Of a stretch of DNA of 64,000 bases, positions 10,676 to 57,125 are shown piece by piece (the stretch's first letter is position 1; every line of letters starts with the position of its first letter). The position numbers and the translations under genes are program-made. The stretch is from an uncultured delta proteobacterium (GTDB lineage: Bacteria > Myxococcota_A > UBA9160 > SMWR01), in assembly GCA_963832165.1 (NCBI GenBank), contig CAWHTE010000003.1, forward strand, positions 576,001 through 640,000. Direction: 5' to 3'. Below the pieces are notes generated by a model. It searched no databases, had not been told where the DNA came from, and saw nothing but the letters and a program-made list of their open reading frames with translations.

Positions 10676-11956
10676 TCAAAGGCGCGCGAGCATTCCGAAG
10701 TAATCAGGCCAGGTCTTCGACACGCAGCCCGGATCGCGGATCGCGATGCCGGGTTGTCGCAGCCCGGCCAGCGCGAACGCCATCGCCATCCGGTGATCGT
10801 CATAGGTGTCGATCTCGGCCGCGCGCAGCGGCGCGGGCTCGATCGCAAGCGAATCGGCGGTCGCGACCGCGTGGGCGCCGAGCTTGCGCAGCTCAGTCTC
10901 CAGCGCCGCGAGCCGATCGGTCTCCTTGATCCGCAGGTTGGCGACGTTGCGGATCCGCGTCGGACCCTCCGCGAACGCCGCGACCACGGCGAGTGCGAGC
11001 ACGGCGTCCGGTAGCGCATTCATGTCGGCGTCGATGCCGACGAGCCGGGCCGCGGGCCCGTGCACCTCGGCCCAATCTTCTCCGCGCACGGCGCGGCACC
11101 CCATGCGCTCGAGCAGGTCGAGGATGCCGACGTCGGGCTGGCGCGTCTTGGGGTCGAGTCCCTCCACGCGGACGCGTCCGCCCGCGATGGCGGCAGCGCA
11201 CAATGGGTATGCCGCCGATGACGCATCCGCCTCGATCGCATAACGGCGGCCGGAGTAGGGGGTGCCCGCGCGCACGCGCAGTGCGTCACTCCCATCCCAA
11301 TCAGCGCTCGCGCCGAACGCACGCATCACGTCGAGCGTGAGGTCGACGTAGGGGCGCGACACGAGCTCGCCGCCCGCGAAGCGCAGCGTGACGTCGCGCT
11401 GGGCGTAAGGCGCGGCGAGCAACACTGCCGAGACGTATTGGCTCGATCGCCGCGCGTCGATCGTCGCCTCGCCACCGCGCAGCCCACCGCCCGCGATCCG
11501 AACGGGGGGACAGCCGCGCGCGCCGAGGATCCGGCACTCGGCACCGAGCTGTTCGAGCGCGCGCGTGAGGTCGTCGATCGGGCGCTCGCGCATGCGCGCG
11601 TTGCCGTCGATCGTGACCGGCCCGTCCGCGAGGCATGCCGCAGCGGTGAGAAAGCGCGCGGTGGTCCCCGAATTTCCCGCGAAGAGCGGCGCCTCCGGTG
11701 CGCGCAGGTGCGCGGCGACACCCGGGACCCGCCAGGGCTCGCCGCTCGCGTCGATCGAACAGCCGAGTGCGGCGAGCGAGGCGACCATCACGTCGGTGTC
11801 GTCGCTCGCGAGCGCGCCCGAGAGCTCGCTGGCCCCGTCCGCGAGCGCGGCCACGAGCAGCGCGCGGTTGGTGACGCTCTTCGATCCCGGAACGCGCACG
11901 CGCGCATCGAGCGGACCGCGCGGCTCGATGCGCAGCGGGTCGGGCAGGTCGAGCAT
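10676..11956 (-). CDS. aroA: 3-phosphoshikimate 1-carboxyvinyltransferase (EPSP synthase)
   Basis: PGSKSVTNR, GNSGTTARF, SSQYVS, RIKETDR, DDHRMAM, KTWPDY. Confidence 0.97.
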   Translation of the reverse strand: MLDLPDPLRIEPRGPLDARVRVPGSKSVTNRALLVAALADGASELSGALASDDTDVMVASLAALGCSIDASGEPWRVPGVAAHLRAPEAPLFAGNSGTTARFLTAAACLADGPVTIDGNARMRERPIDDLTRALEQLGAECRILGARGCPPVRIAGGGLRGGEATIDARRSSQYVSAVLLAAPYAQRDVTLRFAGGELVSRPYVDLTLDVMRAFGASADWDGSDALRVRAGTPYSGRRYAIEADASSAAYPLCAAAIAGGRVRVEGLDPKTRQPDVGILDLLERMGCRAVRGEDWAEVHGPAARLVGIDADMNALPDAVLALAVVAAFAEGPTRIRNVANLRIKETDRLAALETELRKLGAHAVATADSLAIEPAPLRAAEIDTYDDHRMAMAFALAGLRQPGIAIRDPGCVSKTWPDYFGMLARL

Positions 11957-12021
11957 GCGGCGAGCAGGCTACCCCACTACCATCACTTCCCGCCCAGATC
12001 ACGGGAGCCCGAGACGCACCC

Positions 12022-13164
12022 ATGTTGAAACGACGCCTGTTCACCCCCGGGCCGGTACCGGTTCCCGAGCGAGTGCAACTCGCGATGGCCCAGCCGATCA
12101 TCAATCACCGCGCGCCGGACTTCCTGCCCGTGTTCGCGCAGTGCAAGCGCGGCTTGCAGCGCCTGTTCCAGACCGAGAGCCCGGTGCTCATGTTCGCGGC
12201 CTCCGGCACCGGCGCGATGGATGCGGCGGTCTCGAACCTGCTCTCTCCGGGCGACCACGCGCTCGTGGTGCGCGGCGGAAAATTCGGCGAGCGCTGGCAG
12301 GAGATCTGCGAAGCCTACGGCGTGCGCACGACGTGCATCGACGTCACGTGGGGCCAGGCGGTCGATCCGGCCGCGGTGGCGGCCGCGCTCGACGCGAACC
12401 CCGACATCAAGGCGGTCTACCTGCAGGCGTCCGAGACGAGCACGGCGGTGCGACACCCCGTGCGCGAGATCGCGCAGATCGTGCGCCGCTCCGACGATCG
12501 CCTGCTCGTCGTGGACGCGATCACCGCGATCGGCGTATACGAGCTGGCGATGGACGCGTGGGGGCTCGACGTGGTGATCTCGGGCTCCCAGAAGGCGTTC
12601 ATGATGCCGCCCGGGCTCGCGTTCCTGGCGGTCTCCGACCGCGCGCAGCGCTTCATGTCCACGGCCAAAGCGCCCCACTACTACTTCTCGCTCGACAAGG
12701 AGCTCGAGGCGCTGCCGACCGACCAGACTTCGTGGACGCCCGCCGTGGGCCTCTTGATGGGCCTGGCGGAGGCGCTCAAGATCATCCTGGACGAGGAGGG
12801 CCTGGAGGCGACCTGGGCTCGGACGGAGAAGCTCGCGTCCGCGACGCGCGAGGCGATGCGCGCGATCGGCCTCGAGCTGCTCGCGCCGGACGCGCCGAGC
12901 CCCGCGTGCACGGCCGTGTTCGTGCCCGATGGCGTCGACGGCGCGGCGCTGCGCAAGTACCTGCGCGACAAGCTCGGCTACACGCTCGCGGACGGGCAGG
13001 GCAAGCTCAAGGGCAAGATCTTCCGGATCGCTCATCTCGGATACTTCGACCGCTTCGACACGATCGCGTGCATCGCGGCGGTCGAGATCGCGCTCGCTGC
13101 GCAGGGCTACGTCCACAAGCTGGGCGAGGGCGCGCGCACCGCGACCGAGCTGCTCCGCGACTAG
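12022..13164 (+). CDS. Class V PLP aminotransferase (serine-pyruvate/alanine-glyoxylate type; probable SerC role next to serA)
   Basis: TPGPVPVP, SGTGAM, VDAI, SGSQKAFMMPPG (PLP lysine), FRIAHLG. Confidence 0.9.
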   Translation: MLKRRLFTPGPVPVPERVQLAMAQPIINHRAPDFLPVFAQCKRGLQRLFQTESPVLMFAASGTGAMDAAVSNLLSPGDHALVVRGGKFGERWQEICEAYGVRTTCIDVTWGQAVDPAAVAAALDANPDIKAVYLQASETSTAVRHPVREIAQIVRRSDDRLLVVDAITAIGVYELAMDAWGLDVVISGSQKAFMMPPGLAFLAVSDRAQRFMSTAKAPHYYFSLDKELEALPTDQTSWTPAVGLLMGLAEALKIILDEEGLEATWARTEKLASATREAMRAIGLELLAPDAPSPACTAVFVPDGVDGAALRKYLRDKLGYTLADGQGKLKGKIFRIAHLGYFDRFDTIACIAAVEIALAAQGYVHKLGEGARTATELLRD

Positions 13165-46207: not shown

Positions 46208-46356
46208 GGCCCGCTGCCGGGGAATGCAGGACACGCCGTAACGACGGCACACGGAAGTCCGAGCTGCCGACGGGTTCGTGTTCTCCGCGATAACGCGGCG
46301 GACCCCGACACCGGCGATCCCTACGCGCTGCCGGACTCTCGAGTCGGATTTAGTAC

Positions 46357-46406
46357 AGTCCCGCGTCGGGCCGTTAGCTCAGTTGGTAGAGCACCGGACT
46401 TTTAAT
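46357..46406 (+). repeat. attL: 5' half of tRNA-Lys (to just past the anticodon loop) plus 11-nt leader
   Basis: Matches 57039-57088 at 49/50 nt (42 nt perfect); diverges after CTTTTAAT. Confidence 0.95.
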
Positions 46407-46499
46407 GGGTTTTCAGGTTCGCGGATTTCGCTGCTAGTTAACTAGCTTGCGGACTTAGGCCGTTTCTTCGGAGGGGCCGGGAGCACCTCGGAGGAGCGA

Positions 46500-46521
46500 A
46501 GTCCCACCGTAGTCCCCTCAT
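46500..46521 (+). repeat. Putative integrase arm-type site (left)
   Basis: AGTCCCACCGTAGTCCCCTCAT, 20/22 identical to 56965-56986. Confidence 0.7.
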
Positions 46522-47006
46522 TTCAATTCCCGTAGGCGTGCATCGTTTGCGCGCGCATCGGCGATGCCTCGCTTGATCGAGCGTGCGTGCTGAGTGGTGC
46601 TCACGCCCGTGTGGATCGGCGGGCCGTTGAACCGCGGACGACGCTTGAATTCGGCCCGCTCTGCGGCGAGGCGATTCTTGACGCCCTTGGCGCTGTTCGG
46701 CTCGGCCGTGAGTGCGCTGACCGTCTTTGCGATCGCGCGGTGGCGTGCCGCATCGGTGATGCCTGGGATCATGCTCAGGACCGCGAAGAGGTCGTGCTCG
46801 AGGTACGAGCCCCGACGCCGCGGCCGACCGCCAGATACCTCTACCTGGGCCTTCAAGGCGGGGTCGGCCTCGCGATCGAGGTGCTCGCGGATCACCTGGC
46901 GGACCAGGCCGCGGATGCTCTCGTTCATCGGGAGCTGGAACACCGCGAGCTGATCCAGCTCGGGGTCGGGCGCACACGGGCGCTGGAGCTCGTTCACCTC
47001 TGCCAT
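46518..47006 (-). CDS. Hypothetical protein, the only leftward gene of the element
   Basis: 162-aa ORF divergent from the main operon. Confidence 0.5.
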   Translation of the reverse strand: MAEVNELQRPCAPDPELDQLAVFQLPMNESIRGLVRQVIREHLDREADPALKAQVEVSGGRPRRRGSYLEHDLFAVLSMIPGITDAARHRAIAKTVSALTAEPNSAKGVKNRLAAERAEFKRRPRFNGPPIHTGVSTTQHARSIKRGIADARANDARLRELK

Positions 47007-47103
47007 CGTCGGAACGGTAGCGGAGAGCCCCCGAGGAGCCTGAGAGAACCGAGAGACTTTCTGTCATCTAGGGGGACGACGATTCCTGGCCGATCGTGCA
47101 GCA

Positions 47104-47463
47104 ATGGCACTCGATCCGGCTGTCACGACTCCCCGATGGAAACCGCTCAAGGTGCTCGCGCGCGAGACCGGAATCCATCCGCGCCAGCTTCGCCGTGCTG
47201 TTCAACGCGGAGAGCTGGATCACGCACGACCTGGCGCTCGAGTCGTGCTCTCCACCAACTCCGCCGTCGATGCGTGGCTACGCCGGCATCGAGTGCCGAT
47301 CTCGCCGTCAGCGGAAGCGCGGGCCGAGCGCATCGCGGAATCGCTCGCGGCCAGCGAGCCACCAGCGAGCCGTAGAAAAAGCAACGGCCAGGGTTGCCGC
47401 CCCAGCCGTCACGAAAGGAAGAGATCAGGTGAGAACAGAACCCTATCGCCGCCGTCCAGATAA
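47104..47463 (+). CDS. Excisionase/AlpA-like HTH DNA-binding protein
   Basis: LKVLARETGIHPRQLRRAVQRGEL...PGAR...AVDAWL. Confidence 0.6.
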   Translation: MALDPAVTTPRWKPLKVLARETGIHPRQLRRAVQRGELDHARPGARVVLSTNSAVDAWLRRHRVPISPSAEARAERIAESLAASEPPASRRKSNGQGCRPSRHERKRSGENRTLSPPSR

Positions 47464-47617
47464 GCAAGTCGGCCTCGTTTTGTTGAAGCCCATCCTCGAG
47501 CAAGTACTTCTCGAGCTCGGCTGTCGCTTCGAAGGCCCTGTGCGAGATGGTGTCGAGAAACATCTGTCGCACGCGCTCGACGTGACGCTCGACATAATCG
47601 AGGACGCGGCAGCGTGA
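47429..47617 (+). CDS. Small hypothetical protein
   Basis: GTG after AAAGGA; GTGA coupling to the Prim-Pol gene. Confidence 0.5.
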   Translation: MRTEPYRRRPDKQVGLVLLKPILEQVLLELGCRFEGPVRDGVEKHLSHALDVTLDIIEDAAA

Positions 47618-48456
47618 GCGCGCACCTGGACGTTGCTCTCGAGTATGCGTCCCGCGGCTGGCGGGTGTTCCCCATCGTCCCATGCACGAAGCGGCCCGCT
47701 ACGCGGAATGGTGTAGACGATGCCACGACGGACCCGTCGATCATCACCGGATGGTGGCGCCAAGCGTCGCAAGCTGGCGTGGCGATCGCCGCGGGAGCCG
47801 CGAGCAATCTCGTGGTGCTCGACATCGACCCCCGCGCTGGCGGTGACGAGTCGTTGATCGAGCTCGAGGAGAGGCTCGGACCTCTTCCCGAGACTCCGAT
47901 CTCGCTCACGGGTGGCGGCGGCACGCACTACCTGTTCGCGCATCCCGGTGGCCTCGTGCGGAATCGCACCGCGCTCGGTGGCTTCTCGGGAATCGACCTC
48001 AAAGCAGACGACGGCTACATCGTCGCGCCGCCCAGCATCCATCCAAACGGTCGCACCTATGCGTGGAACGTGATGTCACACCCGGCCGACGTGCCGCTCG
48101 CCGCGTGCCCTGCGTCGATTGTGAAGCTGGCCACCGAGAGTCGGGAGCCGCGTCGCGCGAGCTATGCGGGCTCGGCCTGGGACGGGAAGATCCCGGCGCG
48201 GGTTCGCCAGCTCCTGCGCACGGATGCCAGCGTGCGGTTCCGCTTCCGCCGATCAACGCATCGGCTACGGGATACGTCACCGTCTGGGGTCGATTTCGCT
48301 CTCGCCGCGGCGCTCGCGTATCGCAGTATGCGCGGTGCCGAGATCGAGGCGGCGATCCGCGCCAGTCGTGCCCAGGCGAACCTCCCCGAACGCCCCCCGT
48401 CCTACTACCTCGCCACCGTCGGTAAGGCGCTCGGAGCGGCGGCGCATGCAGCATGA
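47614..48456 (+). CDS. Bifunctional DNA primase/polymerase (Prim-Pol)
   Basis: GWRVFP, ATTD, LVVLDID, TGGGGTHYLF, GIDLKADDGYIVAPPSIHPNG. Confidence 0.92.
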   Translation: MSAHLDVALEYASRGWRVFPIVPCTKRPATRNGVDDATTDPSIITGWWRQASQAGVAIAAGAASNLVVLDIDPRAGGDESLIELEERLGPLPETPISLTGGGGTHYLFAHPGGLVRNRTALGGFSGIDLKADDGYIVAPPSIHPNGRTYAWNVMSHPADVPLAACPASIVKLATESREPRRASYAGSAWDGKIPARVRQLLRTDASVRFRFRRSTHRLRDTSPSGVDFALAAALAYRSMRGAEIEAAIRASRAQANLPERPPSYYLATVGKALGAAAHAA

Positions 48457-49537
48457 CCTCGCAGACGACGACAACGTCGTCGAGCTCGAGCGCCCGCGGT
48501 TCATCGCCGCGTGCGACGTGAAGGTGAAGGCTGTGCAGTGGCTTTGGAACCAGTACCTACCGCTCGGGAAGATCAGCATCCTCGAGGGCGATCCAGGGCT
48601 CGCGAAGACGACCATTGCGCTCGACATTGCGGCGCGCGTCACCGCGGGTAAACCGATGCCCGACGGTTCTGCGTGTGAGCGCGGGTCCGTCGTGTTTATC
48701 GGATATGAGGACGACCATGCCGACACGATCGTCCCCCGGTTTCGCGCGGCTGGCGGCGATGACAAGCGGTTCTTCCTGCTGCTGAGCGTCTACGGCCCAG
48801 AAGGACCGCGCCCGATCACGATCCCCGATGATGTCGAGCACCTCCGCGATGTCGTGCAGCAGGTGAAGGCGAAGCTGCTCATCATCGACCCGTTGATGGC
48901 CGCGCTCGCGGGCGACGTAAAAACCAACGTGGATCATCACGTCCGCCGTGCGCTCGCACCGATCAAAGAGCTGGCCGAGGAGAACAACACCGCGGTCCTG
49001 TTCATCCGTCACTGGAACAAGAACGCCCAGATCGACAACCTCAAGTATCGCGGCGGCGGCTCGATTGCATTTACCGGCGCGTCGCGTGCCGGCTTTGCAG
49101 TAGCGGAAGATCCCGAGGACCCGACCGCGCGGCTGCTGATTCCGGTGAAGAACAACCTGGCGCCGGCGATCGCAACCCGACCGCTGCGCTACCGGGTCGT
49201 CACAGACGAAGAGCACCAGACCGCTGCGATCGAGTGGCTCGGCGCAGTCGATGCCCAGCAGATCGCCGAGTCGATGCGGATGAAGGGCCCAGCCGATACG
49301 ACCGCGATCGGCGAAGCGGTCGCGCATCTGCACGAGCTGCTCGCGAACGGCCCCGTGCTCGCGACCGAGGCCGAACGGTATCTGAAGGGTGCGGGCTGCT
49401 CGGCATCCACGATCAAGCGCGCCACGAAGAAAGCCAAGGTGCGGAAGCGCCCGCGGAAGGATGAGCACGGTGTGCCGCACTGGTGGTGGGAGCTACCGGC
49501 CGGAACGAAGACATCCACGCAAGGGGCTCAATCATGA
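48446..49537 (+). CDS. RepA/AAA_25-type helicase
   Basis: WLW...PLGK, Walker A GDPGLAKT, Walker B LLIIDP, HWNK, GSIAF, KNN. Confidence 0.88.
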   Translation: MQHDLADDDNVVELERPRFIAACDVKVKAVQWLWNQYLPLGKISILEGDPGLAKTTIALDIAARVTAGKPMPDGSACERGSVVFIGYEDDHADTIVPRFRAAGGDDKRFFLLLSVYGPEGPRPITIPDDVEHLRDVVQQVKAKLLIIDPLMAALAGDVKTNVDHHVRRALAPIKELAEENNTAVLFIRHWNKNAQIDNLKYRGGGSIAFTGASRAGFAVAEDPEDPTARLLIPVKNNLAPAIATRPLRYRVVTDEEHQTAAIEWLGAVDAQQIAESMRMKGPADTTAIGEAVAHLHELLANGPVLATEAERYLKGAGCSASTIKRATKKAKVRKRPRKDEHGVPHWWWELPAGTKTSTQGAQS

Positions 49538-49616
49538 ACCACCACTTTGTTGCTCTTCTTGGTCTTCTTGAACTGGTTCAAGGGGAGCAAGAGGTTCAAG
49601 AATACCAGTGGTTCAA
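49535..49616. repeat. Iteron-like 9-bp periodic inverted array; putative replication origin
   Basis: (C)TTG units on the left and CAAG units on the right around the central palindrome CTTGAAC-TG-GTTCAAG; outer IR TGAACCAC/GTGGTTCA. Confidence 0.6.
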
Positions 49617-49809
49617 CATGACAGGCGTTGGCGTGTTCGCCGCCGCGTCCGTGTCCACTCGCTCGAGCCGATCTCGAGCGTCGATTCGCGCACCGGGCCG
49701 TGATCTAACCGGAATGCCCGATTCCCCCCGCATCGGTTCTGGAGTCCGAGGTTCACCCGAGGTTTCTCAATGGTTTGCGCCGACGATGGTGGGGATCTGA
49801 GGTGATTCG

Positions 49810-50331
49810 ATGAGAAAGGACCAGCCGCACAAGCTCGAAACACGCGCTCGCCTCAGCGTGCTCGGCAAGGCCGACCGTGCGCGCCGCGCCGACATCGCGC
49901 GGATCGCGCCGTGGGAGCTCACCGAGGCGATCCGCCGCGGGACCGTGCCAGAGCATCGGCGGGCGTACCTGTCTGCCGCGGCCGAGCTGGGGCTCGCGCT
50001 CGTCAATGACCTGGGCGGTCTGGATCAACTCTCCGCGGCGAGGCTCGCGCTCGTCAAGGGTGTGGAGCGATGCGAGCTCCCGATCGCGATGCTCGTGGTC
50101 CGGCTCGCGCAGAGCGACACGATCGACGGGGATCTCGTCTCGAAGCTCACCAGTCTGCTCAACGCGCAGCGCGCAAACCTGCTCGCCCTTGGCTTGGATC
50201 GCGTCGAACACGACGCCATGACGCTGACGCAGTACGTCGCCGCGCAGGATCGCGCCAGCCGCGCGAACGGCAGCACGGCCGACTCGCAGCCCGCGGACGC
50301 GGAGATCAACGCACAGGAGCGCAGCGAATGA
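49810..50331 (+). CDS. Putative terminase small subunit-like protein
   Basis: Helical, DLGG...LS; ends ...RANLLALGLDR; first gene of the packaging operon. Confidence 0.45.
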   Translation: MRKDQPHKLETRARLSVLGKADRARRADIARIAPWELTEAIRRGTVPEHRRAYLSAAAELGLALVNDLGGLDQLSAARLALVKGVERCELPIAMLVVRLAQSDTIDGDLVSKLTSLLNAQRANLLALGLDRVEHDAMTLTQYVAAQDRASRANGSTADSQPADAEINAQERSE

Positions 50332-50744
50332 ACTTCCGAATGGCCGTGGAGACGCGAAACGTGTTGCTCAATGTCCTGCGCGACCGGATCGACGCCGGTG
50401 AGGACTGCGGCGTGCTCAAGTTCTACTCGGGGCCGCAGCCTGACACGGCCGATCGAGAGCTATCGGCCTCGAACAAGTTGCTTGCCCTGCTCAAGTTCGC
50501 GCACCGATCTGCGGCCGACGCGGCCGATGGCACGATCTCATTCCTCGTTTCCCAGGCACCCGCGTGGGCAAAGGGCAAGTCCAGCTTCGCCCGCATCGAG
50601 GATTCAGCGGGCCACGTCGTATTCGACTGCGATGTGGGCGATTTCGGCTCGGGCGCGACGATCGAGGTGGTTGACGGCGTGGAGACGGTCGCAGGCGCTC
50701 CCGTTCGATTGCATTCGTTCGTGGTCCGCATTCCGGTGAGATGA
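50328..50744 (+). CDS. Probable virion structural (minor tail/decoration-type) protein
   Basis: RN...LKFYSGPQPDTAD...FARIEDSAG..VFDCDVG..GSGA pattern, recalled from small beta-rich phage proteins; ATGA coupling. Confidence 0.5.
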   Translation: MNFRMAVETRNVLLNVLRDRIDAGEDCGVLKFYSGPQPDTADRELSASNKLLALLKFAHRSAADAADGTISFLVSQAPAWAKGKSSFARIEDSAGHVVFDCDVGDFGSGATIEVVDGVETVAGAPVRLHSFVVRIPVR

Positions 50745-50887
50745 AGCACACAAAGGAGATCGACATGAGTTTCACCTACCACGCCGCAGCGGGGGCAACC
50801 ATTCGCCCGCCCGTCCGAATCATCACCGTGGTCGCCACCTTCGCGTTCACCGCGAGTGCTGGGGCTCAGCACGGGGGAGCGCGATGA
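50741..50887 (+). CDS. 48-aa small protein not in the ORF track
   Basis: MKHTKEIDMSFTYHAAAGATIRPPVRIITVVATFAFTASAGAQHGGAR*; ATGA overlaps at both ends. Confidence 0.5.
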   Translation: MKHTKEIDMSFTYHAAAGATIRPPVRIITVVATFAFTASAGAQHGGAR

Positions 50888-51219
50888 AGGTCATCGTGCA
50901 ACGCCGCGATTTCACCGCGAGCGCCGAAGCCATCGACGGCGAGCACGGCTGCTTTCTGATTCGCGTCGAGCCTCAAGGCGGGCTTCCTGGCGAGATCATT
51001 TTCGACCCGGTGCTCACGGCGCTCCGCCCGTCATTCGGGAGCAGCGGCCTGTTGATCACGGGCCGCGGCTCCCGTGGTGACCTCGGATCAATCCTGGTCG
51101 ATGAGGAGCACGCCGGTTTTTTGATGAGAGCAATCTTCGACTTCACCGTGAGCCTCGCGGAAGAGGAGTTCAAAGCCGCGGAGGCCGAAGTTGAGGAGCG
51201 ACTTGCGGCGGCGCGATAA
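50884..51219 (+). CDS. Hypothetical protein
   Basis: 111-aa ORF coupled within the operon. Confidence 0.55.
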   Translation: MKVIVQRRDFTASAEAIDGEHGCFLIRVEPQGGLPGEIIFDPVLTALRPSFGSSGLLITGRGSRGDLGSILVDEEHAGFLMRAIFDFTVSLAEEEFKAAEAEVEERLAAAR

Positions 51220-51307
51220 CGCAAGTCGGCCGAGCGCAGTGCTCGGTGGCTGGCGCGACCCAATCTCCGCGCTGGCCCGCCGCCTCCACCTAACGAAAGG
51301 AGCTCCC

Positions 51308-51511
51308 GTGGACTTAGCATCACTAAGCAGGTTGATGGATCGGTATTTGAGCGAGGCGTCCGGCGTGCCCGCCGAGAACAGGGAGAATCATCTCCGTGGG
51401 CTCGCCGCGGCCCGCGCGCTGAGCAACGCGCTCGCAAAGGCCGTCCCGGCGTTTGCCGCTCCCGGCCCGCGCGAACGGCTCGCTCGGCTGCTCGAGGAGG
51501 AGCGACGATGA
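51308..51511 (+). CDS. Small hypothetical protein A
   Basis: GTG after AAAGGAG; ATGA coupling to protein B. Confidence 0.55.
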   Translation: MDLASLSRLMDRYLSEASGVPAENRENHLRGLAAARALSNALAKAVPAFAAPGPRERLARLLEEERR

Positions 51512-51693
51512 CGGACGCCGAGATCCGCGAGCTCGTCGCAATGGCCGTTGAGCTTGTACTGCTCGACCGGAAGCGCGCGACAGATCGCGACCCCGTCAGC
51601 TTGTGGGAGATTTTCGAAAACCATCCGCGCGCGCTCGCTATGGCAGAGAAGCGACTCGAGTGCGCGCTCGCGAACACAAAGGAGTCTCGGTGA
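51508..51693 (+). CDS. Small hypothetical protein B (copy 1)
   Basis: MTDAEIRELVAMAVELV...; GAGGAG RBS. Confidence 0.55.
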   Translation: MTDAEIRELVAMAVELVLLDRKRATDRDPVSLWEIFENHPRALAMAEKRLECALANTKESR

Positions 51694-51920
51694 TGGAACG
51701 TCAACGAATCGCGCGCCTCGAGCGCGCCGACGTAAGCAGGTTGATGGATCGGTATTTGAGCGAGGCGTCCGGCGTGCCCGCCGAGAACAGGGAGAATCAT
51801 CTCCGTGGGCTCGCCGCGGCCCGCGCGCTGAGCAACGCGCTCGCAAAGGCCGTCCCGGCGTTTGCCGCTCCCGGCCCGCGCGAACGGCTCGCTCGGCTGC
51901 TCGAGGAGGAGCGACGATGA
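51693..51920 (+). CDS. Chimeric ORF: protease N-terminus fused to protein A, created by the duplication
   Basis: MERQRIARLERAD joined in frame to VSRLMDRYLSEASG... Confidence 0.45.
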   Translation: MERQRIARLERADVSRLMDRYLSEASGVPAENRENHLRGLAAARALSNALAKAVPAFAAPGPRERLARLLEEERR

Positions 51921-52102
51921 CGGACGCCGAGATCCGCGAGCTCGTCGCAATGGCCGTTGAGCTTGTACTGCTCGACCGGAAGCGCGCGACAGATCGCGAC
52001 CCCGTCAGCTTGTGGGAGATTTTCGAAAACCATCCGCGCGCGCTCGCTATGGCAGAGAAGCGACTCGAGTGCGCGCTCGCGAACACAAAGGAGTCTCGGT
52101 GA
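51917..52102 (+). CDS. Small hypothetical protein B (copy 2)
   Basis: Identical to 51508-51693. Confidence 0.5.
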   Translation: MTDAEIRELVAMAVELVLLDRKRATDRDPVSLWEIFENHPRALAMAEKRLECALANTKESR

Positions 52103-52974
52103 TGGAACGTCAACGAATCGCGCGCCTCGAGCGCGCCGACGCGGGGACGCTGGATCCCGCAACGGGTGTGTTCCCTTTAATCTTGGCAACTTCGGGTGAG
52201 GCGTCAGACGGGGACCTGTTGAGCATCGAGGGCGCGCAGTTTCGCGAAAAGGTGCCGCTGCAGATCAGCCATATTAACGATCCGCTGAGCACGGCGGGCT
52301 CGATCTCTGGCTTTCGACGTGATCTCCGCTCGACGCCGAAACGGCTGCTCGCCTGGGGGCAGATCGAGCTCGACGGCGAGGGCGAGCAGGCAGAGATTCG
52401 CCGCGATCTGGCGCACATGATCGGGGCGGGGCACGTGACCGGGATCAGCGTGCGCTGGGAGCCGATCTCGTGGCAGCGCCGCGCCGATCTTCCGCGCGAA
52501 CACCCCGCGCATGTGCCAGCGAGCGAGCGGAACCCGCGGCGGCGCATGGGCGTGTATCACGAACGCTGGAACGTGCTCGAGGGCAGCATCGTGGCGGTGG
52601 GCGCAGACAAAGCGGCCGTGGTCGGTCGCGCCGAGGAAACCGAGGGGCCGGTGTCGCAGTTCTGGCGCTCGATGGCCGTTGCGCCGCCCGATCTCTCCGA
52701 CCTCGATCAGGTGGCGCAACTTGGGCCGCCTGATCTCTCCGAGCTCGAGACATCCGCGGCCGATCTCGATGCTCCGTCGGCGCCCGATCAGATGCGGCAA
52801 TTTGTCGAACGGCTCAGGGACTCGAGGGCCTCCATGCAGGAGGATTTCCGCCTCTTCTTGCGCTGGCACTCGGGGGAAGTTTTATTCGGCGAAGATCGCG
52901 AGCGCGCACTGCGCCTCCGCGACGAAATCGAGGCGATCAAACGCGCACGAGCGCGAGCAGCGCGGGGACTGTGA
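52102..52974 (+). CDS. HK97-like prohead (capsid maturation) protease with acidic/helical C-terminal extension
   Basis: PLQISH (His), GISVRW (Ser), LEGSIVAVGAD; AAGGAG RBS. Confidence 0.7.
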   Translation: MERQRIARLERADAGTLDPATGVFPLILATSGEASDGDLLSIEGAQFREKVPLQISHINDPLSTAGSISGFRRDLRSTPKRLLAWGQIELDGEGEQAEIRRDLAHMIGAGHVTGISVRWEPISWQRRADLPREHPAHVPASERNPRRRMGVYHERWNVLEGSIVAVGADKAAVVGRAEETEGPVSQFWRSMAVAPPDLSDLDQVAQLGPPDLSELETSAADLDAPSAPDQMRQFVERLRDSRASMQEDFRLFLRWHSGEVLFGEDRERALRLRDEIEAIKRARARAARGL

Positions 52975-54446
52975 GGCTCGACGAGGCGCTCGACGACCCC
53001 AAGCTATTCGCATCCGCGTTTACGGGCTCGTCCTGGGCTGCATGGCGCACCATCTTGCGCGCTACGTATGCACTGCCACCGCGACCCGGCGACCTCGAGC
53101 GGTTTCAGGCACTCACGCAGCGCAAGGCGTGGCCGACCTCGCCGTTTCGGGAGTGTTGGATCGTTGCGGGCCGACGCGGCGGGAAGTCTCGCATTAGTGC
53201 GTTGATCGCCTGCTACACCGCGGCGTTCTACGATCACGATAAGCACCTGGCTCCCGGCGAGCGCGCCGTCGTCGCGATCGTTGCCGCCGATCGCGCGCAG
53301 GCGGGGGTCGTCTTCCGCTATGTGCGCGCACTGTTCGAGGGATCGGCGCTGTTGCGCCAGCTCGTGCAAAACGAGACCCGCGAGCGCATCGAGCTCACGA
53401 ACGGCTGCGATATCGAAGTGGCGACGTGCTCCTATCGCACCACTCGCGGGCGCACTTTTTCCGCCGTCATTGCCGACGAATGTGCATTTTGGCGCGACGA
53501 GACGACCGCAAACCCTGACGCCGCTGTAATCGCCGCATTGCGCCCTGGGTTGGTGACTCTGCCCAATTCATTGTTGATTGGTGTTAGTTCTCCGCACGCG
53601 CGCCGCGGTCTGTTGTGGGACATGCACAAAGCGCACTTCGGGATGGACGGCAGCGACGTGCTCGTGGTTCAGGCCGCTACGAGATCGCTTAATCCCGACG
53701 TGCCACAGAGCATTATCGACCGCGCGATGGAGATGGACCCGTCCGCAGCGTCCGCGGAGTTCTACGGACTTTTCCGCTCGGATATCGAGGCGTTCTTGAC
53801 GCGCGAAACGGTCGAGGCCGTTACCGTGCCCGATCGTCACGAACTCCCGCCCATCGAGGGCGTCCGCTATGTCGCGTTCGTCGATCCGAGTGGAGGATCG
53901 AGCGACTCGATGTGTATGGCCGTCTGCCACGAAGAGAGGCGCGACGGCGCGCGCTTCGCCGTGCTCGACTGCGTGCGCGAGGTGCGGCCTCCGTTCTCGC
54001 CGTCGCAGGTGGTCGCCGACTTCGCCACCGAGATGCGTCGCTACCGGATCAGCGAATGCACTGGCGACCGCTGGGGCGCGGAATTCGTGGCCGAAGCCTT
54101 CCGTAAGGTCGGGATCAACTACAAGCCCGCCGAGAGGCCGAAGTCCGAGCTGTACCGCGAGCTGCTTGGGCCGATCAACAGCGGCACGGTCGAGCTGCTC
54201 GATCACCCGAAGCTCCACGCGCAGCTCGTCGGGCTCGAGCGCCGCGTGGCTCGAGGCGGACGGGAAAGCATCGACCACGGACCCGGCGCGCACGACGACC
54301 TCTCGAACGTCGCGGCCGGAGTCGTCCACCTCGCGCTCGGGCGCCGCCGTGGGCTAACCGCTGAAATGCTCTACGGCGCGGACACCTCGATCAACGACGA
54401 CGACGAACCGGCGCGCGAAATGCCGCGCGGGATCTGGAGGGGTTAA
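52971..54446 (+). CDS. terL: Phage terminase large subunit
   Basis: Walker A AGRRGGKS, Walker B VIADE, SSP coupling motif, nuclease FVDPSGG..D and HDD. Confidence 0.88.
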   Translation: MRLDEALDDPKLFASAFTGSSWAAWRTILRATYALPPRPGDLERFQALTQRKAWPTSPFRECWIVAGRRGGKSRISALIACYTAAFYDHDKHLAPGERAVVAIVAADRAQAGVVFRYVRALFEGSALLRQLVQNETRERIELTNGCDIEVATCSYRTTRGRTFSAVIADECAFWRDETTANPDAAVIAALRPGLVTLPNSLLIGVSSPHARRGLLWDMHKAHFGMDGSDVLVVQAATRSLNPDVPQSIIDRAMEMDPSAASAEFYGLFRSDIEAFLTRETVEAVTVPDRHELPPIEGVRYVAFVDPSGGSSDSMCMAVCHEERRDGARFAVLDCVREVRPPFSPSQVVADFATEMRRYRISECTGDRWGAEFVAEAFRKVGINYKPAERPKSELYRELLGPINSGTVELLDHPKLHAQLVGLERRVARGGRESIDHGPGAHDDLSNVAAGVVHLALGRRRGLTAEMLYGADTSINDDDEPAREMPRGIWRG

Positions 54447-55090
54447 TGCTGTCGCTGCGCAAAATCACCCACCACGAAGCCGGTCACGCGCTCGTGATGC
54501 ACTACAAACCCGCGGCCGGTAGAACGATCCGAGTCACGATCGACGCGAAACGGTTGGCAAGGTACAACGCGGGTCGCAAAGTCGAAGATGCGGCTCTGGG
54601 GCTTCACGAACGCCGGCTGCCGATCTATCGGCCGATCCGCGGGAGCTGCGTCAACGCCGAGGCGCTCGAAGCGGAACTAGCGTATGGGCTGGGCGGCATC
54701 GCGGCCGAGCTCCGACTTCGCAACCGCGGGCCGCTGTACTTCCGCGACCTCGAGACCTGGCCGGTGCGCTTTCTGAACGGAGTGATGGGGGATCTCGACG
54801 GGGCGCGCGGGTTGACCGGAGAGGTGCTCGAGATCAGAGAGGGGAGTGCCCGATCCGCAATGCACGCGCGCGTTGCGGGTGGTGCCGAGCGCGAGGTGGC
54901 TGCGAGAGAGATCGTTCTGGCACGGTGGGCTATGTCCACCGAGATGATCGACGCCGCGCTGACCGAGGCTTTCGAGATCGTCTCTACCCACTGGGCAGCG
55001 TGCCACGCCCTCGCGCGGGCGCTGCTGAAACGTCTGACGCTCGACGGCGACGAGGTGCGCGAGATCATCGAGGCAAACGCCCCCGGCTGA
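54446..55090 (+). CDS. Stand-alone peptidase M41 (FtsH protease domain)-like zinc metalloprotease
   Basis: HHEAGHAL, LGGIAAE, GDL..A, ALARALLKRLTLDGDEV. Confidence 0.75.
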   Translation: MLSLRKITHHEAGHALVMHYKPAAGRTIRVTIDAKRLARYNAGRKVEDAALGLHERRLPIYRPIRGSCVNAEALEAELAYGLGGIAAELRLRNRGPLYFRDLETWPVRFLNGVMGDLDGARGLTGEVLEIREGSARSAMHARVAGGAEREVAAREIVLARWAMSTEMIDAALTEAFEIVSTHWAACHALARALLKRLTLDGDEVREIIEANAPG

Positions 55091-55192
55091 TACGATCCAG
55101 CGAGGAAAAGCCTTGGAATCCCGCAGCTATTGATTACGGCTTGGTGAAATCAAAGAAAGGGGCGATACTTGACGCCGCGAGGTGGACCGCGA

Positions 55193-55360
55193 ATGGGTGC
55201 AGGCCGCAAGCCGAAAGCGAAAGCGGAGAAGCAGTCCGAGTCTGTGACTGCGACGCTGACGCCGGCCGAGATGCGGCAGCTCAAGGCCAAGGCAGGCCGG
55301 GAGCCGCTCGGTTCGTGGGTGCGGCGGCTGATCCTTCGATCACTGCGGCGCCTGAAATAA
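55193..55360 (+). CDS. Small ribbon-helix-helix-like DNA-binding protein
   Basis: GRKPK...SVTATLTPAEMRQLKAKAG..PLGSWVRRLIL. Confidence 0.55.
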   Translation: MGAGRKPKAKAEKQSESVTATLTPAEMRQLKAKAGREPLGSWVRRLILRSLRRLK

Positions 55361-55383
55361 CACCTCCCTACATGGAGGACCGA

Positions 55384-55797
55384 ATGGGATCGTCTCTTCA
55401 CCTACTACCGGCACCCGCTGCGGATGCCAGCAAACACGATCTGGGCGAGTGGCTCGAGCTTATCGGCATCGGGACCGTGCTCCTGGCGCGCATGCACATC
55501 GAGGCGGCGTGCGAGGAGCGCAACGAACACGCGCGAGACGTGGCGGCTTGGCTGGTAGACGATCTCGGCACGATCGTGGCCGCGCTCGGCAAGTTCATCG
55601 CAGGCGGGAAGCTCGAGCTGGGCGAGGAGGAGTACGGGCCGGACGCGTTCAATCGCATCACCGACGCGGCGCGCGCGCTGGGTAGGCCACTGACAGACGG
55701 CACCTCCCACTACTTCGACTTCGCGGTCGAGGCCGTCTCCGAGCGGCTGGTCCGCGAGATCAGGAATGTCGAGCAGGCCGCGGAGGCGCGCGCGTGA
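55384..55797 (+). CDS. Hypothetical protein
   Basis: ATG after GGAGG; GTGA coupling to the integrase gene. Confidence 0.55.
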   Translation: MGSSLHLLPAPAADASKHDLGEWLELIGIGTVLLARMHIEAACEERNEHARDVAAWLVDDLGTIVAALGKFIAGGKLELGEEEYGPDAFNRITDAARALGRPLTDGTSHYFDFAVEAVSERLVREIRNVEQAAEARA

Positions 55798-57038
55798 AAC
55801 GAAAACCGAAGGGACTCCGGTATCGAAACCTCTACGCGCGAGGCGGCTCGATTGTCTACGAGCGCATCCTCAAGGGGCGACGGATCAAGCGCAGCCTCGG
55901 CGTGGATGACTGGGCGGAGGCGGCGGCGGTTCGCGACGCGCTCGAGGCGAAGATCGGCGTGGCAACCCTGCCGATCTCGCAGATGCCCACGTTCTCCGAG
56001 ATGGCGACGAAGTACACCGAGGAAGACACGGGGCACCTCGCCGCGACGACGCGCACGGATCGGCGACTGCACCTGGTGGTGGACGGCACCGTGATGCGGC
56101 ATCTCGCCGCATGGCGTCTGGACGCCATCACCTCGGCCACGCTCCGCGAGTGGTGGAATGCCGAGATCCAGAGCACGGAGCGAACGAACGCAACGGGAGC
56201 CCGCTACCTCGCGAGCATCGCGGGCGTATTCAACTACGCCGTGGAACTGGGCTACATCACGGAGAGCCCGGTAGACGCGCTCCGTCGCAGCCTCTCACGG
56301 CGCGAGCGGTCAAAGCAGGGCAGGGCGAGTACCGGATCGAAGGCAAACCCGATCGAGGATCGGGATGCGCTGGCACGATTGGTGACGGAAGCGCGTGCCC
56401 AGGGGCCGGTCGAGTACGTCATCACGTTGGCGATGCTCGACGCTGGCCTGCGCCGTGGTGAAGCGGTCGCACTGAAGTGGCGATCGGTCGCGTGGGGCGT
56501 GTCTGCCGATGATCCGCGTCGGCATCTCTTTGTCTCGGCCACGCGGTCTAGAGATGAAGAAGAAGACGCACCGAAATCGGGTCGGACCCGCCGCGTGCAG
56601 CTCTCGCGGCGCCTGCGTGCCGCACTGGAGGAACTGTTCGAGAAGCGCCGGCCGAAGACGCTCGACGATCGGCTCTGCGGCGACATGAATGGCGAGCAGT
56701 TTCTCAAGGGCCCGTGGCAGCAGATCATCGCCCGCGCCGATCTCCCCGGCCGCGTTCCGAAGGATCTGCGCGACTCGTTCGGCTCGTGGCTCGTGAGTTG
56801 CGCGGTTCCACTGCTCTACGTCTCGCGCCAGCTCGGGCACTCGTCGATCGCCGTTACCGAGAAGCACTACGCAAAGTGGATACCGGGGGGCGGCGACCTC
56901 TACGTTCACCCGCCGATGCTCGATCCCGGCGACGTACCCGCGGATCTGCTGACGCGGCTACCCGAGTCCCACCAGAGTCCCCTCATCGGCGACCCCTTCG
57001 AGCTTCCCGAGTCGCTCAAGTCACCGGATTTGCACTAG
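55794..57038 (+). CDS. int: Tyrosine recombinase / phage integrase
   Basis: N-terminal arm-binding-like region, AGLRRGE (R), PKS (K), KDLR, LGHS, HY (Y); ends 11 nt before the tRNA. Confidence 0.93.
   Translation: MKRKPKGLRYRNLYARGGSIVYERILKGRRIKRSLGVDDWAEAAAVRDALEAKIGVATLPISQMPTFSEMATKYTEEDTGHLAATTRTDRRLHLVVDGTVMRHLAAWRLDAITSATLREWWNAEIQSTERTNATGARYLASIAGVFNYAVELGYITESPVDALRRSLSRRERSKQGRASTGSKANPIEDRDALARLVTEARAQGPVEYVITLAMLDAGLRRGEAVALKWRSVAWGVSADDPRRHLFVSATRSRDEEEDAPKSGRTRRVQLSRRLRAALEELFEKRRPKTLDDRLCGDMNGEQFLKGPWQQIIARADLPGRVPKDLRDSFGSWLVSCAVPLLYVSRQLGHSSIAVTEKHYAKWIPGGGDLYVHPPMLDPGDVPADLLTRLPESHQSPLIGDPFELPESLKSPDLH
56965..56986 (+). repeat. Putative integrase arm-type site (right, inside the int 3' end)
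   Basis: AGTCCCACCAGAGTCCCCTCAT; direct repeat of 46500-46521. Confidence 0.7.
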
Positions 57039-57049
57039 AGTCCCGAGTC

Positions 57050-57125
57050 GGGCCGTTAGCTCAGTTGGTAGAGCACCGGACTTTTAATCCGAGGGTCCAG
57101 GGTTCGAGTCCCTGACGGCCCACCA
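57050..57125 (+). tRNA. tRNA-Lys (anticodon TTT); its 5' half forms attR
   Basis: 76 nt; acceptor stem GGGCCGT/ACGGCCC, D loop AGTTGGTA, anticodon loop CTTTTAA, GGTTCGAGTCC, encoded CCA. Confidence 0.97.

Follow-up and report, generated by a model that had tools for sequence, protein, structure and literature searches.

A candidate phage satellite with a complete terminase and a prohead protease, without a detected capsid or portal, at a tRNA-Lys gene of an uncultured delta proteobacterium

The phage satellites that come closest to the element reported here include the PICIs and cf-PICIs, for which definitions are laid down in the SatelliteFinder models (de Sousa et al. 2023, PMC10085698); the same source describes the capsid and TerL of cf-PICIs as having emerged from phages three times independently. 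SaPIs are described as redirecting capsid size by mimics of scaffold or capsid proteins, namely CpmB (PMC5644958) and Ccm of SaPIbov5 (PMC8569155). Some VEIMEs are reported to carry HNH endonucleases and serine proteases (PMC9618062), EPIPs to carry genes for TerS, head-tail adaptor and stopper, scaffold, capsid and tape measure (PMC12822802), and PICMIs and VEIMEs to package several genome lengths per head (PMC10803314, PMC12822802). Here, we analysed a stretch of 64,000 nucleotides (nt) from an uncultured delta proteobacterium (assembly GCA_963832165.1, contig CAWHTE010000003.1, positions 576,001 to 640,000; hereafter the window), which contains an element of about 10.7 kb integrated at a tRNA-Lys gene and coding for a terminase large subunit (TerL), a TerS-like protein and a prohead protease, with no capsid or portal gene found. 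The element is probably an integrated, helper-dependent phage satellite that belongs to a large family of capsid-less islands with a complete terminase.

The element is delimited by direct repeats of 53 nt that are identical at 51 of 53 positions (96%) and spaced 10,682 nt apart, both mismatches falling within the 14 nt that precede the tRNA part. The right-hand copy (attR) extends from 14 nt upstream of tRNA-Lys(ttt) to its anticodon loop and thus covers the 5' half of the tRNA gene. Since the intact tRNA-Lys lies downstream of the element and the repeat corresponds to its 5' half, the element supplies this half of the tRNA together with the region upstream. Elements that integrate at tRNA genes usually replace the 3' part, as Williams reportedly found in 2002. 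A sister island in the same genome, located at a tRNA-Gly gene, uses the 3' end of the tRNA, unlike the 5'-half att site at tRNA-Lys. The stop codon of the integrase gene lies inside attR, and the genes flanking the element are ordinary chromosomal genes. Inside, a single clear open reading frame (ORF) on the minus strand is followed by a long plus-strand array that ends in the integrase gene, with successive stop/start overlaps of 4, 4, 4, 29, 4, 1 and 4 nt; GC content by codon position (GC3), plotted by frame, agrees with this plus-strand operon. The element is intact and compact. An earlier reading of the letters, hereafter the original prediction, had proposed an element of this size bounded by att repeats and carrying a translationally coupled operon, and both proposals held, given that the two repeat copies were read directly and that neighbouring genes overlap by 1-29 nt. 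The features of the element are collected in Table 1.

Table 1 Features of the element and its target site in the window. Sequence matches are given with their E-values.
Feature	Coordinates	Strand	Remarks
attL	46354..46406	none	Displaced copy of the tRNA-Lys 5' half at 46368-46406
162-aa ORF	46518..47006	-	GC3 pattern; no Pfam, PHROG or PADLOC match
Xis/AlpA-like helix-turn-helix (HTH) protein, tentative	47104..47463	+	HTH_17 4.9e-4, below cut-off; phrog_1840 excisionase 3.1e-6
Prim-Pol (AEP) primase-polymerase	47614..48456	+	PF09250 2.5e-44; phrog_1156 1.2e-30
AAA_25 (RepA/DnaB-like) helicase	~48446..49537	+	PF13481 1.1e-32; phrog_10729 5.3e-20
Candidate replication origin gap	49538..49809	none	Three GGTTCAAG-like units and a palindrome
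TerS-like protein, 173 aa	49810..50331	+	Divergent member of a ~140-aa family upstream of TerL
Virion protein, 138 aa	50328..50744	+	phrog_3758 'virion structural protein' 8.6e-19
Three coupled small ORFs (48, 111, 106 aa)	50741..51511	+	No Pfam, PHROG or PADLOC match
Tandem duplication	51324..52141	none	End of the 106-aa ORF, gap and first 13 protease codons
Prohead serine protease, 290 aa	52102..52974	+	~195-aa domain and ~95-aa helical tail
TerL	52971..54446	+	phrog_9 2.8e-22; phrog_2 3.5e-21 over residues 49-444
FtsH-like (M41-like) stand-alone metallopeptidase	54446..55090	+	HEAGH motif; PF01434 3.1e-6
Unassigned ORF	54925..55797	+	Coding signal in last ~140 aa only; stop overlaps integrase start
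Tyrosine integrase	55794..57038	+	PF00589 2.4e-10; phrog_1 2.2e-43
attR and intact tRNA-Lys(ttt)	57036..57125	+	attR 57036-57088; tRNA gene 57050-57125

In total, 16 ORFs of the element were compared with Pfam and PHROGs at E <= 0.01. For TerL, the Pfam terminase scores stayed below the curated cut-offs, and tblastn linked the protein to the terL gene of Synechococcus phage S-CBS4 (7e-15). An alignment of 27 sequences revealed the Walker A stretch G67-K72, the pair D169-E170 and the residues D305, D366 and D442-D443 to be invariant. Walker A, the Asp-Glu pair and the acidic nuclease residues are the catalytic elements of TerL proteins. By these motifs, TerL is predicted to be complete, with an ATPase and a nuclease part, and the full-length TerL of the original prediction is thereby upheld by PHROG matches as well as by invariant motifs of both domains.

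The TerS-like protein, whose gene lies 2.6 kb upstream of that of TerL, was aligned with the profile of the ~140-aa family found next to TerL in related islands (hhalign, prob 96.2%, E 2e-9). Its AlphaFold2 (AF2) model (mean per-residue confidence, pLDDT, 82.3) had the HK97 small terminase as top match in Foldseek (prob 0.97). A second structural alignment (VIA) with HK97 TerS yielded a Z-score of 8.4 and a root mean square deviation (rmsd) of 2.5 over 84 of 101 residues, a Z-score that helical models reach by chance; the structures of HK97 TerS are 6Z6E and 8POP. The ESM language-model search gave a weak lead to Terminase_4 (score 0.91), and none of 31 members of the family matched Pfam, including Terminase_4 (PF05119), at E <= 1. 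The TerS-like call of the original prediction is thus retained at moderate strength, resting on profile homology to a TerL-adjacent family and on the HK97 fold match and lacking Pfam membership.

The gene downstream of it codes for a 138-aa protein that matched chain A (141 aa) of PDB entry 9RKV (E 2.5e-6), a model of the tail fibre of Agrobacterium phage 7-7-1; judged by its size and chain number in the entry, this chain is probably the 'garland' protein gp014. By this match, the 138-aa protein is predicted to be a relative of a small chain of the tail-fibre complex rather than a shell protein. For the prohead protease, the AF2 model (pLDDT 82.7) aligned with T4 gp21 (5JBL) at Z 10.8 and rmsd 2.9 over 137 residues, far above the next-best folds, the herpesvirus assemblins, at Z ~6. 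His57 and Ser116, which from their motif context are the likely catalytic pair, are invariant among the 21 homologues detected, which have the N-terminal domain of ~195 aa in common and vary in the helical C-terminal part. In Pfam, including PF04586, no match was obtained at E <= 0.01, leaving a weak match to phrog_4523 (5.3e-4) as the sole family hit. The protease that had been proposed for this locus is therefore supported by an assemblin-like predicted fold and the conserved His and Ser. PDB sequence profiles gave nothing useful for TerL, the protease or the TerS-like family. The protease of the element is 290 aa long compared to 322-489 aa in phage homologues; a shortened scaffold tail that sets a small capsid size was considered and is retained as no more than speculation, the length difference being small.

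In the same 16 ORFs, no family of capsid, portal, tape-measure or lysis proteins was found, nor any head-tail adaptor or connector family. When 9 portal, 8 capsid, 4 protease and 2 MuF sequences served as tblastn queries, the protease was the only match in the window, and the largest unassigned ORF, at ~215 aa, is too short for a portal or an HK97-fold capsid protein. These results agree with the original prediction, in which no ORF resembled a capsid, portal, tape-measure or lysis gene and the unassigned ORFs were too short to be a capsid or portal. A portal is needed by any capsid-forming element. The whole genome (89% complete) was also searched, and neither capsids (PF05065, phrog_10) nor the portal family phrog_2662 were found in it, with positive controls; the search of the genome with the portal family phrog_146 is uninformative, as the control genomes gave no match. 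Since capsid and portal families are absent from these searches of its own genome, the shell would have to come from outside.

A word-based search yielded 3,431 relatives of TerL among 8,000 scored candidates, with 50-60% identity for the best 120. When TerL alone served as query, no loci in genomes or viral contigs were returned, and alignment-based searches were needed. When each species was represented by one genome, 599 stretches matched, of which 584 code for a TerL relative, and the best 80 of these 584 or more (47-55% TerL identity) were analysed as related loci. They stem from Alpha- and Gammaproteobacteria, Acidobacteriota, Gemmatimonadota, Nitrospirota, Binatia, Rokubacteria and others, and several of the other genomes carry two copies. 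Most of the 80 loci are islands of 8-18 kb at tRNA genes with an integrase, a primase/helicase, a small TerS-like protein and TerL. Apart from TerL, tblastn of 14 element proteins found Prim-Pol in 2 loci, AAA_25 in 5, the TerS-like protein in 1 and the integrase in 8; because the neighbours are too diverged for tblastn, we clustered the ORFs and obtained two conserved neighbours, the ~140-aa protein encoded immediately before TerL (65 of the 80 loci) and an integrase ~5.8 kb upstream (53 loci). Exact repeats of at least 43 nt flank TerL in 27 of the 80 loci, many of them at tRNA genes, and delimit 7.8-17.7 kb.

The neighbours of TerL in these loci were scanned with Pfam (105 ORFs of 8 loci), with PHROGs (for the other 72 loci, 214 representatives of ORF clusters, 230-800 aa long) and by tblastn with 23 head-gene queries. 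A portal was detected in a single locus (L048) and a capsid gene in four (L016, L028, L046, L049). A prohead protease was found by tblastn in another four (L012, L027, L057, L061), to which PHROGs added L085 and, weakly, L069. Tape-measure-like genes occur in seven loci (L030, L043, L050, L046, L057, L082, L025) and a baseplate-hub-like gene in eight (L031, L058, L065, L066, L067, L070, L073, L074); the remaining loci showed no structural genes in these scans, in which ORFs above 800 aa lay outside the PHROG part. Of the syntenic elements for which the original prediction had proposed a search, the portal-poor islands with integrase, primase and TerL do recur, whereas the protease is rare (4 of 80 by tblastn). 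Its proposal of TerL, TerS and protease as a class-defining unit had to be abandoned, the shared core being integrase, primase/helicase, small TerS-like protein and TerL. Islands of this TerS-TerL type with variable add-ons are thus abundant and not unique to the window, and they are apparently undescribed.

The genome of the window itself (5.5 Mb in 11 contigs) contains three copies, the TerLs of the two others being 52% identical to that of the window. One of them, on contig C5 (G000:C5:264859-279713; L006 2860-17758), is complete, measures 14,854 bp between its flanking repeats of 45 nt, which lie at the 3' end of a tRNA-Gly gene, and codes for an integrase, a fusion of an AEP primase with AAA_25, a homologue of the TerS-like protein (45%) and TerL. 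Between the latter two lies a gene for an HNH endonuclease (phrog_1271 2.8e-8), and no protease, capsid or portal was found in this copy. The C5 copy also holds a DUF2513 protein, a PEP-CTERM protein and a DUF3102 protein. The third copy, on contig C4 (G000:C4:~732000-738888; L007), is truncated where the contig ends, with TerL distributed over two frames.

Several of the related loci deserve mention in their own right. L028 (1-7873), a contig of 7.9 kb in a metagenome-assembled genome of Methyloprofundus, begins and ends with the same 51 nt and codes for an integrase, a 261-aa ORF, the TerS-like protein, TerL and a capsid protein of the HK97 type (PF05065 4.1e-79). By its terminal repeat, this contig may be circular and may represent an excised or replicating island with terminase and capsid and without a portal. 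An integrated relative of 9.3 kb is present in Thiomicrospira sp. ALE5 (L016). In L012, the gene right after TerL (11771-12757) codes for a 328-aa fusion of an IrrE/DUF6782-like metallopeptidase at the N-terminus with Peptidase_S78 (8.2e-25), which echoes the pairing of prohead protease and stand-alone metallopeptidase around TerL in the window. Larger islands of 15-17 kb, mostly from Alphaproteobacteria (Hyphomicrobiales, Acetobacterales), carry genes of tail type downstream of TerL without a detected capsid or portal, with the exception of L046, which has a capsid gene. A cluster of proteins of 570-780 aa, encoded 2-4 kb downstream of TerL (L077 13606-15942; L015, L051, L054), has no PHROG match and would suit divergent portals in size and position. 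The related loci include cultured carriers, among them Thiomicrospira sp. ALE5, Sinorhizobium fredii USDA 205, Bradyrhizobium japonicum and Roseomonas sp., which makes the satellite idea directly testable.

The relatives of the protease point to phages as its source. They were found in 72 metagenome and 29 IMG/VR loci, where the phage gene order around the protease is TerL, a portal with a MuF domain, a ~190-aa protein, protease, phrog_10 capsid and head-tail adaptor; the TerL family of the element is absent from these loci. As the relatives sit in phage head modules without this TerL family and the C5 copy has an HNH endonuclease instead, the protease is, by all appearances, an accessory add-on captured from a phage head module. 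For TerL, four of 50,697 deposited phage genomes gave a match, at 20-27% identity, and IMG/VR contained 81 relatives at 39-51% identity. Phages that carry portals next to related TerLs, as detailed below, argue for a motor that is derived from phages and not confined to islands. In a genome of the same genus, locus L002 (G006:C479, 2915-4057) codes for a TerL with 36% identity, followed by a portal-like stretch (29% to a query portal); L002 may be a true phage of the genus and a lead to the types of helper.

In a FastTree analysis of 151 TerLs, the TerL of the window was placed beside a clade of portal-bearing phages (Shimodaira-Hasegawa (SH)-like support 98). We rejected this placement as long-branch attraction because this TerL moves into a clade dominated by islands when the closest homologues and the C5 copy are included in an IQ-TREE analysis. 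The latter comprised 126 TerL rows, including the C5 copy and those 29 metagenomic homologues that are closest (P0002-P0030, 56-60% identity), with 45 of 71 rows of an alphaproteobacterial clade, 7 identical or nearly identical rows, 2 more from identical sets and the long-branched L002 dropped. In this tree, the TerLs of the window and of the C5 copy fall into a clade of 31 rows (SH-like approximate likelihood ratio test, SH-aLRT, 98) within a clade of 49 rows (95). Where the context of the latter rows is known, they are for the most part islands without a portal, from Acidobacteriota, Binatia, Nitrospirota and Gemmatimonadota.

Several observations speak against the satellite reading and have to be set beside it. 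A portal lies downstream of TerL in 34 of 79 IMG/VR loci (TerLs 39-48% identical), and those sampled have full head modules. The 29 closest homologues of TerL are not among the rows of known context in the tree. Mapping the presence of a portal on the IQ-TREE phylogeny forces at least six changes, with island and phage TerLs intermixed, and islands and phages have therefore exchanged TerLs, or islands have arisen, several times; given this intermixing, individual islands could be young remnants of phages. Some larger islands carry ORFs of 570-1250 aa that have no family match or lay outside the scans and that could be divergent portals. Within the element, the assignment of the Xis/AlpA-like protein is weak by its sequence matches, and that of the TerS-like protein is moderate, considering a helical model, a Z-score of 8.4 within the range of chance and no Pfam match among the 31 family members. 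Furthermore, the element contains a perfect tandem duplication of 409 bp (2.0 copies, 100% identical), which had been missed in the original prediction, creates a chimeric ORF of 105 aa (51603-51920) and without which the element would measure 10,273 bp. The duplication is either very recent or an assembly artefact, and it warns of an imperfect assembly. Among the sequencing runs, a single soil run held a small share (0.10) of the words of the element, and no RNA run was listed. Of three runs examined, one contained perfect contig pieces of the element of 151-267 nt, the other matches being tRNA-like pieces of other organisms. In the low-cover contig pieces of these three runs, neither the circle junction nor an empty site was seen, the pieces being too sparse to judge excision, and no reads over the 409-bp duplication were present.

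These points bear most directly on the explanation that the element is a decayed prophage which has lost its portal, capsid, tail and lysis genes and is not transferred on its own. Such decay would account for protease relatives that sit in full head modules, for portals beside TerLs of 39-48% identity, for the portal-like stretch behind the distant TerL of the same-genus genome G006 and, as a recent rearrangement, for the tandem duplication. On the other hand, protease followed by TerL is no phage order with a gap in it, the stop/start coupling is tight, both att sites are intact and the catalytic residues of TerL and protease are retained. A replication module of satellite or plasmid type directly adjoins the packaging genes, and the complete C5 sister shares the layout. 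The same stripped layout recurs in 80 loci across several phyla, with a portal in one of the 80, which makes simple decay unlikely and extends the argument of the original prediction, which had relied on intact ends and a coupled operon. Taken together, we regard decay as quite unlikely. We rate as unlikely, too, that the element is an island of interference or defence, in which TerS/TerL and protease would sabotage packaging or head maturation of phages and own transfer would be inefficient. Known satellites are described as hindering the packaging of their helpers and as carrying defence genes (PMC9618062), the solitary protease and peptidase could plausibly serve as weapons, and selection for protection could account for three copies in one genome; however, no PADLOC model matched any of 14 element proteins, the complete TerL with TerS (and the HNH endonuclease in the C5 sister) exceeds what interference needs, and the spread over several phyla at ~50% identity calls for efficient transfer.

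An explanation at the far end would have the small unassigned proteins build a new type of shell, such that the element forms particles without any helper. Six ORFs do lack an assignment and one small protein is a genuine virion component, although this protein resembles an accessory chain of a tail fibre and not a shell. TerL motors of tailed phages work on a portal vertex, and no ORF of the element has the size of a portal or an HK97-fold capsid protein; with neither portal nor shell-sized ORF, a self-sufficient particle is very improbable. We thus favour the satellite, whose gene set provides what a satellite needs and no more: the means to integrate and excise, to replicate autonomously and to build a complete terminase. 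Its dependence on a helper, its packaging in foreign capsids and the roles of protease and virion protein are what we infer. In a broader version, which we put forward tentatively and consider less probable than not, these islands would make up a major undescribed satellite family of Pseudomonadota, Acidobacteriota, Gemmatimonadota, Nitrospirota and others that brings TerS and TerL, sometimes with an HNH endonuclease, to foreign procapsids and repeatedly captures individual genes of morphogenesis (protease, capsid, tape measure, baseplate hub) with which helper particles are reshaped, the captured protease acting here as a factor of remodelling or sabotage.

The cycle of such a satellite could proceed as follows. 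Upon infection by, or induction of, a helper phage, the integrase and the Xis-like protein would excise the element as a circle of 10.7 kb, which Prim-Pol and the AAA_25 helicase would replicate from the repeat-bearing gap after the helicase gene. The HK97-type TerS-like protein would mark the DNA of the element, and the element's TerL would cut this DNA and dock on the portal-bearing procapsids of the helper, such that the satellite is packaged in place of helper DNA. A genome of 10.3-10.7 kb would underfill a normal head, and either several genome lengths per head, as concatemers of the kind described for marine satellites, or remodelled capsids would be expected. The protease, with its helical tail, might enter the procapsids of the helper and mature, remodel or sabotage them, and the virion protein associated with tail fibres could alter the adsorption of the particles. 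One may guess that induction is under the control of the FtsH-like peptidase and the minus-strand ORF.

With regard to the remaining genes, the integrase, Prim-Pol and helicase of the original prediction were borne out by Pfam and PHROG matches, in contrast to the Xis/AlpA-like HTH, for which the matches are weak. A minus-strand ORF of 69 aa (47068-47277) is favoured by GC3 and overlaps the start of the Xis-like ORF, so that one of the two calls may be wrong. The 162-aa minus-strand ORF is possibly a regulator. In the gap of 273 nt at the 3' side of the helicase gene, the frame plot gave no coding signal, and the GGTTCAAG-like repeats suggest an origin of replication; the ori-like array proposed for this place is present, if modest, with its three units and palindrome. 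The M41-like peptidase of the original prediction has an HEAGH motif, its Pfam score is under the cut-off (27.6 compared to 29.9 bits), and weak PDB sequence matches to C-termini of FtsH-like proteins were obtained (0.009). The unassigned ORF preceding the integrase gene had no match in Pfam, PHROGs or PADLOC.

Compared with the described systems, the element resembles PICIs in its size of ~10 kb, in the order of integrase, small regulator and primase-replicase followed by packaging genes, in its own small terminase and in the occurrence of several copies or kinds per genome; of these features, the integrase, Prim-Pol and AAA_25 are clear and the regulator HTH is weak. It differs in its full TerL, prohead protease and virion protein, where the packaging genes of PICIs as described consist of the small terminase only, and in its integrase gene, which comes last in the operon and points to the tRNA. 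With cf-PICIs, it shares TerS plus TerL, packaging genes of phage origin and a TerL tree in which island and phage sequences are mixed. Yet cf-PICIs are described as making their own capsids and stealing only tails (10.1101/2022.09.08.507074, Alqurainy et al.), whereas the element has no match to a capsid, adaptor or connector. By the definitions of PMC10085698, in which PICIs lack TerL and cf-PICIs need capsid and head-tail genes, the gene set fits no published satellite family as defined there, in line with the original prediction. Proteins of the P4 type (Sid, Psu, Delta) had no PHROG or Pfam match in the 16 ORFs, such small proteins being easily missed. The carriage of a single head-assembly gene, here the lone protease and in L016, L028, L046 and L049 a lone capsid gene, is reminiscent of SaPIs as described; in contrast to their scaffold or capsid homologues, the gene of the element codes for a catalytic prohead protease. 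VEIMEs and PICMIs are likewise described as small integrative elements with integrase, primase/helicase and TerS (PMC9618062; PMC10803314). The account of VEIMEs lists the large terminase among the presumed helper genes (PMC9618062), and that of PICMIs describes an island reduced in gene content (PMC10803314); neither account makes mention of a TerL belonging to the satellite, whereas the element has its own.

The packaging genes are most reminiscent of the HK97 module, given the best fold match of the TerS-like protein and the HNH gene between the TerS-like gene and TerL in the C5 sister; HNH proteins are said to have a role in packaging, as attributed to Kala et al. in 2014. The sequences of the element are nevertheless far from the HK97 family, as the lack of Terminase_4 matches illustrates. 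Full-text literature searches, with supplements outside their scope, found no published satellite family with TerL but without a capsid. If the satellite reading is true, it would extend satellites to phyla of soil and sediment without studied examples and would explain many islands with an 'orphan terminase' that prophage finders now call defective phages, and the add-on genes (protease, capsid, tape measure) would be natural experiments on the fewest parts required to take over a virion. In published families, the packaging motor is borrowed from the helper (PICI, P4, PLE, PICMI) or heads of the satellite's own are made (cf-PICI); if true, an abundant family whose members supply a whole motor and no shell would represent a third strategy.

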